DNA from: Escherichia phage vB_EcoS_HZ_ZJUN2
DNA: 64,000 nucleotides
Sequence record: PP216084
Direction: 5' to 3' (one strand)
Shown: in pieces, positions 22,451 through 56,057 of the stretch
How the letters are laid out: each line of letters opens with the position of its first letter
Position numbering within the stretch: position 1 is the first letter of the stretch
Translations under genes and position numbers: made by a program
Notes under the pieces: model-generated
Told to the model about the DNA's origin: nothing
Seen by the model: the letters and a program-made list of their open reading frames with translations, nothing else
Databases searched by the model: none

Positions 22451-22479
22451 ATTATAGCAAGTATTTAAGCATTTAGCAA
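22451..22479 (-). promoter_or_regulatory. T5-type promoter inside the ligase intergenic region (minus strand)
   Basis: Reverse complement TTGCTA - 17 bp - TATAAT followed by ATTTATATAAATT. Confidence 0.6.
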
Positions 22480-40196: not shown

Positions 40197-40225
40197 TTGC
40201 TAATCGCTACCAGATTTGCTATAAT
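40197..40225 (+). promoter_or_regulatory. T5-type promoter for the HNH gene inserted between nrdA and nrdB
   Basis: TTGCTA - 17 bp - TATAAT. Confidence 0.65.
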
Positions 40226-40771: not shown

Positions 40772-41917
40772 ATGACTACTTTACTAAACCTGAACTGGGA
40801 TCCTGCTACTAAAGATTTATTTTTAGGTGATTCTCTAGGAATCGCGGACTATGTTCGTGTAGCTCATCCAGAACTAGAACGACTAGCTCTATTAGCTCGT
40901 TCTCAGTTTTGGACTGAGACTGAGATCAGTCTAGAAAGTGACAAAAAGCAATGGCCTAATCTTCCAAGAGAAATACAAGAAATTACTCTGCTGAACTTAG
41001 CTTGGCAGACTCAGTGTGATTCCTTTATCAGTCGTGCTCCTGAAGCAGCTATTATGCCGCTTGTAAGTCGTCCAGAATTGGAAGGTATGCTCAAACAGTG
41101 GAGCTACTTCGAAGATCTGCATAGTCGTGCTTATAGCAATATTATTCGTAATGTGCTAACTGATCCAGCAGAATTTATTGATTCTGTAACCAAAAACCAA
41201 GAAGCATTCGCACGCATCGCTGATTCTGTTGAACTATTCGATGAACTGTACCAGTTAGGTCAGTATTTCATCGCAGTACGCGATCATCGTGGCGACAATA
41301 CATATCCAGAAACTGAGTTCCCTGAAGTTAAACGTGAAACTCAGGCTAAACTATTAGACGCTTACTTTGCGATCTATGGTCTGGAAGCAATGCAGTTTTA
41401 CGCATCCTTTGCATGTACCTTTGCATTAGCAGAGAACGATATTCTGCAAGGTATTGCTAAAAACCTACAATTAATCGCTAAAGATGAAGCTCTACACACT
41501 CAGATGTCTAAAGCAATCATCCAGATTATGTTCCAGCAGTTTGACAAAGACCTGGTAGATGAAGCATTGGCTAAAGCACCAGCACAGCTTCTGAAAACTC
41601 TGAAAACTGAAATTGAATGGGGTCACTTCATTTTCAAAGGTCGTAGTCTGATTGGCTTGAATGCAGAACTTCTAGAAGAATATCTGTACTTTGTGGGGCG
41701 TAATGCATTTATGCACATCGGTGTAGAATGGCCTAGTCATTTACCAGTAATCACTAAGAACCCCATTCCGTGGATCATGAACTGGTTGGATACTACTTCT
41801 CTACAGCCTGCTCCGCAAGAAATCCAGATTGGTGCAGCCTACCGTGTAGGTCAGGTCACAGAAACGTCTACTGATACTCTGAAAGATCTGGGCAATGAAT
41901 TTGGAGATTTCCTATGA
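40772..41917 (+). CDS. nrdB: ribonucleoside-diphosphate reductase small subunit (class Ia)
   Basis: 381 aa; ferritin-like di-iron fold with EALH motif; adjacent to nrdA. Confidence 0.85.
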   Translation: MTTLLNLNWDPATKDLFLGDSLGIADYVRVAHPELERLALLARSQFWTETEISLESDKKQWPNLPREIQEITLLNLAWQTQCDSFISRAPEAAIMPLVSRPELEGMLKQWSYFEDLHSRAYSNIIRNVLTDPAEFIDSVTKNQEAFARIADSVELFDELYQLGQYFIAVRDHRGDNTYPETEFPEVKRETQAKLLDAYFAIYGLEAMQFYASFACTFALAENDILQGIAKNLQLIAKDEALHTQMSKAIIQIMFQQFDKDLVDEALAKAPAQLLKTLKTEIEWGHFIFKGRSLIGLNAELLEEYLYFVGRNAFMHIGVEWPSHLPVITKNPIPWIMNWLDTTSLQPAPQEIQIGAAYRVGQVTETSTDTLKDLGNEFGDFL

Positions 41918-47726: not shown

Positions 47727-48550
47727 ATGGGTAAATTACAAAAACAAATACTACCATATATAGATTATATTCGAGAAATTATAGAGTATAATCCTTATAC
47801 CGGTAAATTATTTTATAAGCCTAATAAATACAAGAATAAAACTTGGCACACCCTATATGCTGGGAGAGAGAGATATGTAGTAAGAACTCTGATGGGTATA
47901 TCAGAGTTAGTTTGCTCTTAGATAACAAACCCACAATTATTTATGGACACCGAATAGCGTGGTTGCTACATTATGGTGAAGAGCCGCCTCATATGATCGA
48001 CCATATAAATACCATACCGTGGGATAACAGAATTATTAATTTAAGAGAGACAAATTTTAAGTTAAATAGAATTAATACTAATAAAACCATAGGTGTAGAA
48101 CTCCTCCCAGAGGGTTTTGTATATAGCATTACATTAGATGGAAAGTTCTTCGTATCTCCTGGCTTCACCACTTTCGAACAAGCTAAAGGGGAAAGAGAAA
48201 AACTAGTAAATGGCTTATGTAACGCAGAAATTGGGAAGCAGACCAATATCCTAATAGACGATGTTAGAAATCTACCTGAAATGTCTATTATTTGTCGTAC
48301 AGTTGTATGTGCGCTAGAATTATCAGACGCGTTTAGTTTCACAGGCTCATACCTATTTATGGACTCAGATCTAGGAGATCCAGAGGTACAAGGAAAAGAT
48401 TTATTAGATCATATACTATTTTTAGGTCAAAGACCTTTAAAAGTGGTTTTAGTAACATCTAACCCCGTTGACGCAGAGTACATGAGAGGTACTCTTACAT
48501 CTTATGGATACAGAGAAAATCCCAATAGATTAGAATATGATCTATTTTAA
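47727..48550 (+). pseudogene. HNH homing endonuclease gene split by a -1 frameshift at a (GA)n tract
   Basis: N-terminal part in frame 0 (47727-47921) and HNH-containing part (…DGYIRVSLLL…YGHRIAWLLHYGEEPPHMIDHINTIPWDNRIINLRE) in the -1 frame (47843-48550); overlap contains GGGAGAGAGAGA (47862-47873). Confidence 0.55.
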
Positions 48551-49080: not shown

Positions 49081-49251
49081 ATGAAATCAGTTGTAATTAT
49101 TGGTGTTAACACTCGCGGTATTCGTACTACGAAAACTGTTAAAACTTCTAACGTTGCTGAAATCACTATGAACCCTAAAAAGTTTGATTTCGCCAAAGTC
49201 TCAGCAGTTATGACAGAACAATCTTTTAACCAAGCATTAGGAATGAAGTAA
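49081..49251 (+). CDS. small hypothetical protein
   Basis: 56-aa ORF (below the 60-aa track cut-off) with GAGAGGAAG RBS; stop overlaps the next start. Confidence 0.45.
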   Translation: MKSVVIIGVNTRGIRTTKTVKTSNVAEITMNPKKFDFAKVSAVMTEQSFNQALGMK

Positions 49252-49694
49252 TGGAAGAGAATATTTTAGATGTTTTGCGTAGAGCTTTGCAGGATTCTAA
49301 GTTTAATGGTTCTGATAAAGAAGTCGCTAAAAGCTATCAGACCATAATCGGGGATCTTCAGCGTATTGATAAAGATTTCATCACTTCTGAACAATTTGTG
49401 TCTTATCTCAAAGCTCAACTAAAAAGCATTAACCAGATGAAAGCTAAACTTCATGGTCAAGATCTCGATAGTTATAGCTTACAGTCTGCTCAGTATGAGT
49501 ATATTCTAAATAAATGGTTGCAGGAGTATCTGCCTCCTCAGTTATCTGATACTGAGATTCGTAAATACTTTGCAGAATTAGTTAAGCTAAACCCTGGAAT
49601 TACAAAGGGTATGCTGATGAAAGCGATTAAGGAAGAATTTCCTGGGCGTTATGATGGTGGTACTGCTGCTCAGATTGCTGGCGAATTTAATTAA
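49251..49694 (+). CDS. hypothetical protein, GatB/YqeY-domain-like
   Basis: 147 aa; C-terminal …FPGRYDGGTAAQIAGEF resembles YqeY-type domain ends (weak). Confidence 0.45.
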   Translation: MEENILDVLRRALQDSKFNGSDKEVAKSYQTIIGDLQRIDKDFITSEQFVSYLKAQLKSINQMKAKLHGQDLDSYSLQSAQYEYILNKWLQEYLPPQLSDTEIRKYFAELVKLNPGITKGMLMKAIKEEFPGRYDGGTAAQIAGEFN

Positions 49695-49702
49695 AAATTT
49701 AT

Positions 49703-49731
49703 TTGCTAAATGCCTTTAAATTCTGTATAAT
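49703..49731 (+). promoter_or_regulatory. T5-type promoter driving an ORF-free ~0.8-kb region
   Basis: TTGCTA - 17 bp - TATAAT followed by ATATTCATAAATTAGGGAAC. Confidence 0.65.
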
Positions 49732-49954
49732 ATATTCATAAATTAGGGAACAGCGAGCCGATTACGCTGAATGCAGAATCCCAACCGGAGCGCATTGAAT
49801 AGAGTCGGTGGGTTAGTTGTAAAACTAGTACACAGGGGGCGGCAATCCCGGTTAGTGGCTAGAACGTGTAAAATGAGGCGTCTGAAACCTCTCCCCTAAA
49901 CTCTTCTCTAATTTATAAATAGTGGGGTGTGGAAATCACTTATGTAGTAACACT

Positions 49955-50026
49955 GCCGATCTAGTATAAACGGTATTATCAAGCCGTAACTGGTGGAAGA
50001 TGTAGGTTCGAATCCTACGATCGGTA
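49955..50026 (+). other. tRNA-like element with aberrant anticodon arm (possible pseudo-tRNA)
   Basis: 7-bp acceptor pairing GCCGATC/GATCGGT and perfect T-arm GTAGG-TTCGAAT-CCTAC, but no 5-bp anticodon stem with U33 and no encoded CCA. Confidence 0.3.
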
Positions 50027-50527
50027 AGAACTGGATAACTGGTGCTTTTAACGTAAAAGCTTCCGAGGTTAGTTGCGCACTGCCTAAACCACGCGGTAGT
50101 TGGTTCCAGACTAACCAACCAGTCTGCTGAATAGTTTTATTACGATTTAACTATGTCCAGGCTAAAGAAGAACTTTAGAAGGTATTCTAGGTAGTGAAGT
50201 TTTTCCTCCATATCGGAGTAGTTTTTCAAGCTACCAACAAAGTGGGAAATGCTGACATGAGAGATGTCACTAATGGTGCACAATAGCACAGGTAATTCGC
50301 GATAACTCCTGTTGAGTAGCAGCAAAAGGCGGGAAGTCATGACCCCAAGCCTAACCGAGTCCTCAATATACCGCAGGACATAACCACTAAGTCACCCTGA
50401 CTTAAACTGGAAAATAATAGACGTTACTGTATTTTGTCTTGAAATACTTAATGAGTGAGACTTATGACTCTCCCGGTATCGTCTGTATTTTTAAGAGTTT
50501 TTACGAGAGTTCTTAAAAATACTTAAA

Positions 50528-50602
50528 CGGGGTGTAGTCTAAGGGAGAGGCAGGAGTCTTCTAAATTCCTTTATGCAGGTTCGAATCCTGTCACCTCGGC
50601 CA
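50528..50602 (+). tRNA. tRNA-Arg (anticodon TCT)
   Basis: Hand-folded cloverleaf: acceptor CGGGGTG/CACCTCG, anticodon loop CTTCTAA, T-loop TTCGAAT, encoded CCA. Confidence 0.65.
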
Positions 50603-51584: not shown

Positions 51585-51608
51585 TTCCCACACGTAATAT
51601 TCGAAGTA

Positions 51609-51648
51609 AGCCCTGTGTTCCCTGGAGAGCGCAGGGCTTTTCTGTTTT
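51609..51648 (+). terminator. intrinsic terminator
   Basis: Stem AAGCCCTG/CAGGGCTT followed by TTTTCTGTTTT. Confidence 0.7.
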
Positions 51649-51869: not shown

Positions 51870-52388
51870 ATGACTGTTGATGAACTAACAGAACATCTCT
51901 TATCTAGAGGGTTTGATACAGATAAGTATCATTGCTGGTTAAGCCAGGAAGGATGGCTAACAGTCCCGTTGTATGACTTCTCTGGGATGTTGAGAGGCTA
52001 TCAAACTTATAATCCTTCTGCTCCAAAAGGTCATGGTAAGTGTCCCTTTGAAGCTAAATATTTTACTTATTCTACTACCCAGTGTGTATGGGGATTAGAA
52101 ACTCTCAATGGAGATGAAAAAGTAGTATTGATTGCTGAATCTGTATTTAAGGCAGTTGCGTTACATAACGCTGGTTATCCAGCCCTGGCAATGTTGGGTT
52201 CTTCCCCCGGAAAAGCATTATTAAAGCAATTGAAATTATTACCTTTTAAATTGGTAGCTGTAGGAGATAATGATCCTGCGGGTGAAAAATTTGCTAGAAA
52301 ATTAAACGGCTTTGTTTCTCCTGTAGATGTAGATGAGATGTCTACCGAAAACTTGAAAAATTTTCTTGCTATGAAGCTAAATTTCTAA
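51870..52388 (+). CDS. small Toprim-domain protein
   Basis: Start at the ATG behind GAGAGAGGAATC; VVLIAESVFKAVAL…VAVGDNDPAGEK Toprim acidic motifs. Confidence 0.55.
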   Translation: MTVDELTEHLLSRGFDTDKYHCWLSQEGWLTVPLYDFSGMLRGYQTYNPSAPKGHGKCPFEAKYFTYSTTQCVWGLETLNGDEKVVLIAESVFKAVALHNAGYPALAMLGSSPGKALLKQLKLLPFKLVAVGDNDPAGEKFARKLNGFVSPVDVDEMSTENLKNFLAMKLNF

Positions 52389-52503: not shown

Positions 52504-52581
52504 GGTTCTCAAGCTCATATGGTATGAGCACCCAGCTCATAACTGGAAGGTACGTAGGTTCGAATCCTCGGGGAGCCACCA
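52504..52581 (+). tRNA. tRNA-Met-like (anticodon CAT)
   Basis: Acceptor GGTTCTC/GGGAGCC, D-stem GCTC/GAGC, anticodon loop CTCATAA, CCA; T-stem has only 3 clean pairs. Confidence 0.55.
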
Positions 52582-55475: not shown

Positions 55476-56057
55476 ATGCACGGAATATCCTTACCCATTC
55501 CAGGGTTTGAGGAGTACTTAGTAAGTTTGGATGGGTTAGTATTTAGTATCAAATCAAACAAAATACTAACCCCAATAACCAGTAATTACGGATACTTATC
55601 TATACGTCTCCATAAAAATGGTCAACAGAGAAATACCGGTGTACATAGGATTTTAGCATGTGCATTTAAGAAATTACCAAGTCTAGACTCTGAACTAGAA
55701 GTTGACCATATTAACACAGACATTACTTATTGGGGTCTTAATAACTTACAAGTGCTCACAAAAGAGCAGCATCTAGAAAAGACTTTAAAAGATAAAGGAT
55801 TTAGTAAACTAAACCATGATAATTGTTGTAAGGATTGTGGTAAAGCTATTTCTTTAAAAGCTGAAAAATGTCAGGAGTGCTCTTCACATAAACCAAAAGA
55901 TATCTCTATAACTAAAGAAATAATCGAGGTTACAGTAAGAGAGCTAGGCTGGTCAGGTGCAGGGAGAAAGTTAAGTTATTCAGATAATGGGTTGCGTAAA
56001 AGATACACTTCTTTAGGAGGCAATCCTAAAGAACTTAAAAAGTTAAAGGTACTATAG
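55476..56057 (+). CDS. HNH homing endonuclease
   Basis: …YGYLSIRL…HRILACAF…EVDHINTDITYWGLNNLQVLTKEQH; C-terminal ELGWSGAGRKLSYSDNGLRKRYTSL module. Confidence 0.7.
   Translation: MHGISLPIPGFEEYLVSLDGLVFSIKSNKILTPITSNYGYLSIRLHKNGQQRNTGVHRILACAFKKLPSLDSELEVDHINTDITYWGLNNLQVLTKEQHLEKTLKDKGFSKLNHDNCCKDCGKAISLKAEKCQECSSHKPKDISITKEIIEVTVRELGWSGAGRKLSYSDNGLRKRYTSLGGNPKELKKLKVL

Follow-up and report, generated by a model that had tools for sequence, protein, structure and literature searches.

The interval at positions 49732-50527 of the DNA described here, which lies between an early promoter and a tRNA-Arg gene, very probably encodes RNAX, which is a large, structured non-coding RNA found in T5-like phages. 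The DNA is a stretch of 64,000 nucleotides (nt) from Escherichia phage vB_EcoS_HZ_ZJUN2 (sequence record PP216084; referred to below as the window), and its source is a T5-like phage (Tequintavirus). An “RNAX” is already known in GenBank, by name. What appears to be undescribed is that RNAX is a conserved structured RNA of four to five domains, in which a tRNA mimic is embedded and a palindromic loop displayed, and how it is distributed among phages. In effect, RNAX is a new family among the large structured phage RNAs without known function. A first-pass annotation, made from the letters of the window, had suggested that this interval holds either at least one structured non-coding RNA or a complex precursor of tRNA. 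That proposal is supported by the existing rnaX annotations, by covariation over the core of the element and by the absence of conserved proteins.

Identity and distribution of RNAX

There are three records in which a misc_RNA described as “rnaX: RNAX, stable RNA with unknown functions” is annotated at this locus: those of T5 (NC_005859.1), Salmonella phage 5 (AJ604531.1) and phage DT571/2. All three are the work of the group behind the sequencing of the T5 tRNA region, and in all three rnaX lies under “promoter P16-17” and directly before tRNA-Arg. In T5, rnaX (T5s08) occupies positions 40848-41566 of NC_005859.1. The sequence in the window is 98.1% identical to rnaX of AJ604531.1 over 100% of the query, and 94.2% identical to rnaX of T5 over 79% of the query. 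The order of the locus in the window (YqeY-like gene, promoter P16-17, RNAX, tRNA-Arg(UCU), band-7 gene) is syntenic with that of the T5 rnaX group. By sequence and position, the copy in the window is the orthologue of T5 RNAX. The copies are not identical in their parts: those of the window and of phage 5 have a 5′ domain of 147 nt that is missing from T5 and DT571/2, and T5 rnaX has an extra 87-nt insert in its 3′ part.

The RNAX region is 98–99% identical to that of many Tequintavirus genomes (e.g., HildyBeyeler and Salmonella phage 3sent1), and there is at least a partial match in 524 phage records. The comparison drew on 49 distinct copies of the locus, taken from annotated phages and from contigs of IMG/VR and of metagenomes; once redundancy was removed, 22 sequences remained. 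RNAX is conserved across the Demerecviridae of enterobacteria, i.e., in Tequintavirus, Epseptimavirus, Sugarlandvirus and Hongcheonvirus. Apart from the three records above, the region has mostly been left blank in these genomes, or else carries “hypothetical proteins”, or calls of “tRNA-Ser/Sec/Pro/OTHER” on its tRNA-like element. No article on the structure, family, distribution or expression of RNAX turned up in literature searches on RNAX itself, on the stable RNAs of T5 and on the T5 transcriptome; the only match joining “RNAX” with T5 was discarded, as the word is absent from its main text.

Evidence for a non-coding RNA

RNAX is about 790 nt long in the window, of which about 610 nt form a conserved core. 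Comparison of the related sequences shows that it is non-coding, and that base pairing on the plus strand is under selection and conserved across the family. The first-pass annotation was right that the plus strand of 49732-50527 holds no open reading frame (ORF) of 60 amino acids (aa) or more: the longest are 42 aa and 45 aa. Two ORFs on the minus strand, of 60 aa and 66 aa, had gone unmentioned; neither is conserved among relatives. No reading frame is conserved among the relatives, in which ORFs of at least 35 aa shift in place, frame and strand. Substitutions relative to five relatives show no third-position excess (e.g., 44/49/58 and 54/59/56 by position modulo 3), and the insertions and deletions between relatives are mostly of 1–2 nt rather than multiples of three. 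According to the first-pass annotation, proteins encoded in the homologous regions of relatives would have refuted its proposal; the relatives encode no conserved proteins there.

It could be argued that the region is a decayed coding sequence (remnants of small genes or of a homing endonuclease gene), or that it encodes real small proteins. “Hypothetical proteins” of 42–66 aa are annotated in some genomes, homing endonuclease genes insert beside the element, and phrog_19105, the sole protein family with a match in the region, is hit (E = 2e-37) by the 45-aa ORF (49993-50130, plus strand), which is listed as a “hypothetical protein” in several genomes. However, the annotated ORFs share neither position nor frame, and codon periodicity is missing. 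The phrog_19105 family consists of this same ORF, and is probably an annotation artefact, because the ORF overlaps the T arm and the helices P2 and H2 (see below) and is not conserved in other genera. Furthermore, compensatory base changes are unexpected in a decaying coding sequence. A coding or once-coding origin is therefore barely credible.

The 610-nt core folds with z = −2.72 against shuffled sequences, below all 20 shuffles. Pairs of G with U are frequent on the plus strand in P2 and in the terminal hairpin (e.g., UG in 11 and in 15 of the 22 sequences at two P2 positions). On the other strand these would be A-C mismatches, in agreement with the orientation of the promoter and of the tRNAs. 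There is a vanishingly small chance that the hairpins act instead as DNA, i.e., as a replication origin, a nick site or an array of protein-binding sites. Palindromes do occur within the region, and T5 DNA has site-specific nicks, one of which is annotated about 1 kb downstream; but the many G-U pairs are on the plus strand only, the long-range helices P1 and P1′ span 150–170 nt, and a dedicated promoter, oriented as the tRNAs are, is conserved upstream.

Architecture of RNAX

The comparative evidence indicates that RNAX is a single large RNA with several domains rather than a series of separate hairpins (Table 1). It is a mosaic in which, across the four genera, invariant motifs alternate with segments that vary in sequence and length and that fold into equivalent hairpins. 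The invariant or near-invariant motifs are AGUGGGGUG, AACACU, AAGA..GAUAACUG, CUAAACCACG, AGUGGGAAAUG, GGAGUCAUGACC, AUAACCAC, AGUCACCYUGACU, AAACUGGAARAUA and the terminal hairpin. An alignment of the whole core with MAFFT and RNAalifold failed in the variable parts; the analysis was made domain by domain, using anchors and one covariance model.

In some lineages, homing endonuclease ORFs or ORFs of unknown type have been inserted on either side of the core (between it and the promoter, or after the terminal hairpin and before tRNA-Arg), but never within it. Four stretches (L007:717-1199, L007:1787-2296, L010:2252-2728 and L011:2389-2894) mark these two insertion hot spots around the core. 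In epseptimaviruses, an HNH homing endonuclease gene (Pfam HNH_3) lies between promoter and core, and several lineages have an ORF of 158–169 aa, or two small ORFs, without a Pfam match, between terminal hairpin and tRNA-Arg.

Table 1. Positions of RNAX, of its predicted structural elements and of the flanking promoter and tRNA gene in the window
Feature	Position	Strand	Description
Early promoter, sigma-70-type	49703-49731	+	TTGCTA-17 nt-TATAAT; equals “promoter P16-17” annotated in T5 and Salmonella phage 5
RNAX transcript	49738-50527	+	Homologous to misc_RNA rnaX of T5, Salmonella phage 5 and DT571/2; ends inferred
Optional 5′ accessory domain	49738-49916	+	Closing stem ATAAATTAGGGAA (49738-49750) with TTCTCTAATTTAT (49904-49916)
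Hairpin of 5′ domain	49751-49769	+	CAGCG-AGCCGATTA-CGCTG; covaries, CAGCA/TGCTG in DU_PP_V
Candidate pseudoknot of 5′ domain	49758-49761 with 49805-49808	+	CCGA with TCGG; covaries, CAGA/TCTG
Domain I	49922-50092	+	Closed by helix P1, GUGG (49922-49925) with CCAC (50089-50092)
Helix P2	49935-50043	+	AUCA-C-UUAU-G-UAGU (49935-49948) with ACUG-G-AUAA-C-UGGU (50030-50043); tRNA-like element on its tip
tRNA-like domain	49955-50026	+	Acceptor stem, D arm with D-loop GG, canonical T arm and loop (GGUUCGAAUCC), degenerate anticodon arm
Hairpin H2	50044-50060	+	GCUUUU...AAAAGC; variants GCUUC/GAAGC, GCUUAU/AUAAGC, GGUUC/GAACC, GCGUA/UACGC
Hairpin H3	50067-50084	+	GGUUAGU-UGCGC-ACUGCC; variants GGCAG/CUGCC, GACAG/CUGUC
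Domain II	50093-50241	+	Most variable module; lengths 120 to 297 nt; block-swapped between phages
Hairpin of domain II	50099-50105 with 50113-50119	+	GUUGGUU/AACCAAC; compensatory change in relatives, GTTGATT/AATCAAC
Domain III	50242-50387	+	Closed by helix P1′, GUGG (50242-50245) with CCAC (50384-50387)
Hairpin H4a	50253-50269	+	In domain III
Hairpin H4c	50288-50312	+	In domain III
Hairpin Pk	50327-50352	+	In domain III; stem covaries: AGGC/GCCU, AGGU/ACCU, AGACU/AGUCU, UAGGCU/AGCCUA
Hairpin H5	50359-50379	+	In domain III
Conserved strand	50390-50416	+	AGUCACCCUGACU-U-AAACUGGAAAAUA; complementary to Pk loop
Domain IV	50418-50484	+	Three-way junction; outer helix UAGACG with CGUCUG; two hairpins, CUUAAU between
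Terminal hairpin	50485-50522	+	A+U-rich, 17 bp (GUAUUUUUAAGAGUU...GAGUUCUUAAAAAUAC); most conserved RNAX piece; many G-U pairs
tRNA-Arg(UCU)	50528-50602	+	CCA encoded; ARAGORN and Rfam; T5 annotation tRNAR

Domain I is closed by P1, which covaries: it is AUGG/CCAU in KKP_3711 and ACGG/CCGU in DU_PP_V (a Pectobacterium phage of the subfamily Mccorquodalevirinae, in which the RNAX promoter is kept), with 100% pairing and both of the counted pairs doubly changed. Within it, P2 has 12 pairs, 99.6% of alignment cells paired and 7 pairs doubly changed, its variants including UAAC/GUUG, UGAU/AUCA, UAGC/GCUA, UUAC/GUAA and CUGA/UCGG; it also keeps conserved C-C and G-G mismatches. For the domain as a whole (a MAFFT alignment of the 22 sequences, covering P1, P2, the acceptor stem, the T arm and H2), 95.9% of cells are paired and 17 of 31 pairs are doubly changed. 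None of 500 column shuffles was as good, and sliding the partners by 1–3 columns lowered the pairing to 33–42%. In some relatives (the Seafire, KFSSM, Sugarlandvirus and DU_PP_V types), the place of hairpin H3 is taken by a branched insert of larger size, a 50–60-nt extension with GCUG/CAGC closure. A small GUG...CAC hairpin before the tRNA-like element was dropped from the model, as its registers conflict among relatives.

The tip of P2 carries the tRNA-like element. The first-pass annotation had described it, at 49955-50026, as having a perfect acceptor and T arm and a defective anticodon arm. The element is there, its T arm is canonical and its anticodon arm is indeed defective; the acceptor stem is not perfect, having 7 base pairs (bp) that include a G1-U72 wobble. 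ARAGORN forces it into a call of “tRNA-Ser(act)”, and the Rfam tRNA model scores it at 39 bits against a gathering score of 29. The alignment to that model (RF00005) skips the 18-nt anticodon region, in which at most 3 pairs are possible, so there is no complete cloverleaf; in KFSSM and the Sugarlandvirus relatives this region has been swapped for unrelated sequence. The element has retained its acceptor stem and its T arm with loop, as well as the D-loop GG, which the elbow requires. The acceptor and T arms covary, and a U-U mismatch occupies pair 5:68 in 17 of the 22 sequences. The element encodes no CCA, and its flanks form the covarying P2. Because it is mounted on the tip of this covarying 12-bp helix, the element is probably a built-in domain of RNAX and not a degenerate tRNA gene.

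Domain II has sub-modules that are shared in a mosaic pattern among genera. One hairpin of this domain had been singled out in the first-pass annotation, the CAGACT...AGTCTG hairpin at 50108-50129. Such a hairpin exists, at 50107-50126, and it is not the conserved one: it overlaps the GTTGGTT/AACCAAC hairpin and is lost in KKP_3711 and MET_P1_137_112.

Domain III is closed by P1′, the positions of which read ACGG...CCGU in DU_PP_V. In the MAFFT alignment of this domain (18 sequences), pairing holds in 98.6% of cells, double changes occur in 7 of 20 pairs, and not one of 500 shuffles did as well. The covariance model derived from that alignment detects the divergent members KKP_3711 (37.6 bits), 26175IV (37.2 bits), KFSSM (33.3 bits) and Sugarlandvirus relatives (22–23 bits). 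The loop of its hairpin Pk shows GG(A/G)AGUCAUGACC, with a central 8-nt palindrome, GUCAUGAC, at 50336-50343. The AGUCAUGACC part is invariant in every member of the family, and the third base of GG(A/G) is A in window-type phages and G elsewhere. Some 40 nt downstream of the loop lies AGUCACCYUGACU, which is complementary to it, a pairing proposed by RNAalifold. The conserved strand that contains this motif may thus form a long-range helix (AGUCAUGA with UCA..UGACU) or, as another possible fold, its own small triloop hairpin. The strand is near-invariant across Markadamsvirinae and Sugarlandvirus and different in DU_PP_V. As it is invariant where present, its pairing with the Pk loop is beyond the reach of covariation.

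The outer helix of domain IV is formed by five unrelated sequences in five lineages, all with the same architecture; besides that of the window there are CUGACGG/CCGUCGG, UGACAG/CUGUCA, CAGUAG/CUACUG and GACUAG/CUAGUC. The terminal hairpin is about 93–100% identical even in Hongcheonvirus and DU_PP_V, and it is not followed by a U run. Where ORFs have been inserted ahead of tRNA-Arg, this hairpin has remained with the RNAX core. The 87-nt insert in the 3′ part of RNAX, found in T5 (L003, at about 2010-2100) and also in L071, can form a hairpin, and the conserved AGTCACCTTGAC-TAAACTGGAA motif is directly duplicated on its two sides; the insert looks like a small insertion with target duplication, or the product of slipped recombination.

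The 5′ accessory domain is optional: in T5 and DT571/2 all that is present at its place is a stem with the loop GTAATTC. Where it occurs, its closing stem is kept in variant forms (ATAAATTAAAGAGA/TTCTCTTAATTTAT and GTAGTAAAGA/TTCTTTACTA), and its fold energy is unexceptional against shuffles (z = −0.71).

With a tRNA-like element inside the core and a tRNA immediately after it, RNAX could be regarded as a processing spacer, the helices of which guide RNase P, RNase III or RNase E to free a small tRNA-like RNA and tRNA-Arg, the remaining pieces being functionless and degraded. Both ends of the core abut tRNA-shaped substrates for RNase P, the pairing of leader with trailer in P2 recalls the processing stems of ribosomal RNA, and the T5 cluster has other annotated small “tRNA-like stable RNAs”. 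Against this, about 450 nt outside the tRNA-like units (domains II–IV) keep covarying helices and invariant single-stranded motifs, and the conserved C-C and G-G mismatches of P2 are atypical of a generic RNase III duplex. Moreover, the core and terminal hairpin remain intact where ORFs part them from tRNA-Arg; thus, their conservation is not tied to the maturation of tRNA-Arg. A role purely as a spacer is decidedly unlikely.

Several points nevertheless weigh against this account of RNAX. Parts of it are dispensable, to judge from the lack of the 5′ domain in T5 and DT571/2 and the free swapping of domain II. The GUCAUGAC loop, AGUCACCYUGACU and (within Markadamsvirinae) P1′ never vary where they occur, and their pairings are predicted ones. 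The relatives are akin to each other, with about 22 non-redundant sequences, and the shuffle statistics overstate their independence. The alignment of domain III made with the covariance model, which includes divergent members and gives 97.4% of cells paired, 18 of 26 pairs doubly changed and none of 500 shuffles as good, is biased towards the structure of the model itself. Finally, the term “stable RNA” goes back to the GenBank note, and its experimental basis could not be traced.

Promoter, transcript and neighbouring genes

The promoter upstream of RNAX was correctly recognised in the first-pass annotation as a consensus promoter: TTGCTA-N17-TATAAT matches the consensus at 10 of 12 positions. 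It is present upstream of the element in 44 of 44 related family sequences. The sole sequence without it, L067, is a chance pattern match and hence lies outside the family. The distance from promoter to core is 45–496 nt in all family members examined, including the distant DU_PP_V. We infer a 5′ end of RNAX about 7 nt past the −10 hexamer; by the annotations of T5 and phage 5, the start would be near 49744. The tRNA-Arg at the end of the region, also noted in the first pass, is identified by both ARAGORN and Rfam as tRNA-Arg(UCU).

Phage T5 is known for its strong early promoters, and the recurrence of the promoter sequence in the window fits this: exact copies of TTGCTA-N17-TATAAT occur on the plus strand at 40197, 44748, 47668, 49703, 52366 and 61388, and on the minus strand at 22451. 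The copy at 52366 drives tRNA-Ser(GCU). Directly after that tRNA, at 52504-52578 (plus strand), is a tRNA that ARAGORN missed and Rfam scores at 38.2 bits, with the anticodon loop CUCAUAA (CAU). It matches T5 tRNA-Ile2(CAU) in position, and raises the number of tRNA-type genes in the window from 21 to at least 22.

A single promoter serves RNAX, tRNA-Arg and the SPFH/band-7 ORF, and the sole terminator-like site (51608-51639) follows that ORF. This arrangement is what might be expected if RNAX were a cis-regulatory leader, i.e., an attenuator or sensor for tRNA-Arg and the SPFH/band-7 gene. However, a length of 600–900 nt far exceeds that of known leaders, neither a terminator/anti-terminator pair nor a helix sequestering a ribosome-binding site was seen, and the downstream genes vary (homing-endonuclease-like and unknown ORFs) while RNAX is constant. 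The leader hypothesis is thus highly improbable.

The gene just 5′ of the RNAX promoter (49251-49694, plus strand) is named differently in different records, either as “tRNA amidotransferase/YqeY-like” or as “recombination-related exonuclease”. Its product matches Pfam YqeY weakly, at 25.4 bits, which is under the curated cut-off of 27 and makes the match a lead only. A YqeY-type tRNA-binding protein encoded beside an RNA that has a tRNA mimic would be a possible candidate partner. Sugarlandviruses have no YqeY-like gene at this position. Further upstream, at 47843-48550 (plus strand), is an ORF of 235 aa with an HNH-like segment (…HRIAWLLHYGE…IDHIN…); in HildyBeyeler the orthologue carries the label “intein-containing hypothetical protein” (a T5.084 homologue with an intein).

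Sequences related to RNAX were sought with exact-pattern scans of IMG/VR, of JGI/ENA metagenomes and of GTDB genomes, which found the element in T5-like phages only; in the window, RNAX motifs were found nowhere else. Matches outside T5-like phages were coding coincidences, e.g., GGAGTCATGACC as a ribosome-binding site plus start codon. Among the discarded matches is one in a metagenome-assembled genome of Synergistaceae, inside an apparent IMP dehydrogenase (guaB-like) coding sequence. Two environmental contigs from IMG/VR have features of their own. In the viral contig 3300002220_000838 (L024:12844-13330, minus strand) there is, about 450 nt 5′ of tRNA-Pro, a mini-version of the domain III motifs: the compact unit GUGGGAAA...GGAGUCAUGACC...AACCAC, along with GGGGUG and GGUUCGAUUCC, which resembles a T arm. 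Distant kinship or coincidence could explain this unit, to which the domain III model gives only 10.4 bits (E = 0.87) and which is not claimed as a member of the family. In the phage contig 3300017766_004476 (112.7 kb, a T5-like size), GGAGTCATGACC...AACCAC occurs in a hairpin-like context (L021:14210-14280, minus strand), about 800 nt 5′ of an array of 12 tRNAs. Within the window, the domain III model gave a weak match (14.8 bits, E = 0.06) to 55797-55915 (plus strand), in the tRNA cluster between tRNA-Asn and tRNA-Asp, which is probably noise (30% G+C).

Comparison with known RNAs

In searches of Rfam 15 at E values up to 10, using the window and three divergent relatives, only tRNA models rose above noise. 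There was no match to GOLLD (RF01998), ROOL (RF03087), transfer-messenger RNA (tmRNA; Rfam and ARAGORN), RNase P RNA, group I or II introns, HEARO, OLE or raiA. Low-scoring matches to SpF41, Hrs13 and snoRNAs were rejected as noise.

GOLLD and ROOL are large (about 580–800 nt) multi-junction RNAs, encoded by phages or prophages beside tRNA islands, and GOLLD can hold tRNAs in a variable linker (PMC12286853, PMC5737381). RNAX is similar in that it is phage-encoded, adjoins a tRNA island, exceeds 500 nt and has several multi-stem junctions; this is a likeness of kind and no evidence of homology. There are also differences. The phages that carry RNAX are lytic siphophages with Gram-negative enterobacteria as hosts, unlike those of GOLLD and ROOL. 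The tRNA-shaped unit of RNAX is permanent, non-decoding and held by a helix, whereas GOLLD has an occasional functional tRNA. As regards the homo-oligomeric cage of GOLLD and ROOL, a hint of self-association in RNAX comes from the palindromic loop only.

It is conceivable that RNAX is an analogue of GOLLD and ROOL, i.e., an RNA-only oligomer or cage formed via kissing GUCAUGAC loops, to which the tRNA-like domains are attached. The shared context speaks for this (both are encoded by phages beside a tRNA island, with several hundred nt and multiple junctions), as do the tRNAs sometimes carried by the GOLLD linker and the presence of an invariant 8-nt palindrome in the loop of a hairpin with a covarying stem. 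However, neither model matched RNAX in the Rfam searches, and the palindromic loop is also complementary to AGUCACCYUGACU downstream, so that the pairing could be intramolecular. On balance, such an analogue is unlikely.

The tRNA mimic of RNAX can be compared with the tRNA-like domain of tmRNA and with the 3′ tRNA-like structures of viruses: in all three, the minihelix of acceptor and T arms and the elbow are kept and anticodon function is lost. Unlike the others, the RNAX mimic is internal, has a paired leader and trailer, and has no free or encoded CCA end. The stable RNAs of T5 known as RNAI, RNAIII, RNAIV, RNA1, RNA2, RNA2H and RNA3 lie in the same early cluster and were named by the same annotators, and some are tRNA-like. 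These seven are 73–172 nt long, whereas RNAX is 636–785 nt in the three annotated records.

Proposed mechanism and significance

If RNAX is a conserved RNA of the kind described above, its life in the infected cell might proceed as follows. The host RNA polymerase would transcribe RNAX early, from 49703-49731, in one transcript with tRNA-Arg(UCU) and the SPFH/band-7 gene. Cleavage by RNase P at G1 of tRNA-Arg, as expected from established tRNA processing, would release the 3′ end of RNAX, and the conserved 17-bp terminal hairpin would cap this end and guard it against exonucleases. The RNA folds into an optional 5′ domain, two domains closed by GUGG/CCAC, a variable middle domain and a 3′ three-way junction. 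A further RNase P cut, inside RNAX at the tRNA-like unit, is conceivable, and in that case the two pieces might still be joined by P1 and P2. The mimic keeps the acceptor stem, the T arm and the elbow formed by the D and T loops, without a working anticodon arm and without CCA.

Tentatively, RNAX may be a stable scaffold that offers a tRNA-shaped module to a factor that recognises tRNAs, acting as a decoy or as a recruiter. The candidate factors, which would be either recruited or soaked up, include a processing or modification enzyme, the neighbouring YqeY-like protein and a host defence nuclease that targets tRNAs. Partners from tRNA biology are the most plausible, because RNAX heads the tRNA island and keeps the elbow and acceptor arm but not decoding, and because the tRNAs of T5 are known to counter tRNA-targeting defences (PMC11555353; 10.1101/2023.03.15.532788).

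A bolder proposal, made by analogy, is that RNAX is an abundant RNA that forms a multimeric particle by self-assembly at its GUCAUGAC loop and so presents several tRNA mimics in an early contest over the tRNA pool. This is improbable as matters stand. Were it true, RNAX could be a decoy or sponge for host defence nucleases that cleave tRNAs, or a platform on which phage tRNAs are protected or matured, and the function of a large “ornate” phage RNA could for the first time be solved in a genetically easy system, that of T5 with E. coli K-12.

To our knowledge, few large structured RNAs of bacteria and phages are known, and the functions of GOLLD and ROOL are unsolved despite recent structures from cryo-electron microscopy. 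RNAX is found in a classical model coliphage and in hundreds of sequenced relatives. Its promoter is clear, its fold is modular and variants with deletions and insertions occur naturally, all of which makes knock-outs, probing and structural work straightforward. An Rfam-style family for RNAX would correct spurious “hypothetical proteins” and “tRNA-Sec/Ser/Pro/OTHER” calls in many genomes. The permanently embedded tRNA mimic ties RNAX to the question of why phages carry tRNA islands, and to the countering of tRNA-targeting immunity.

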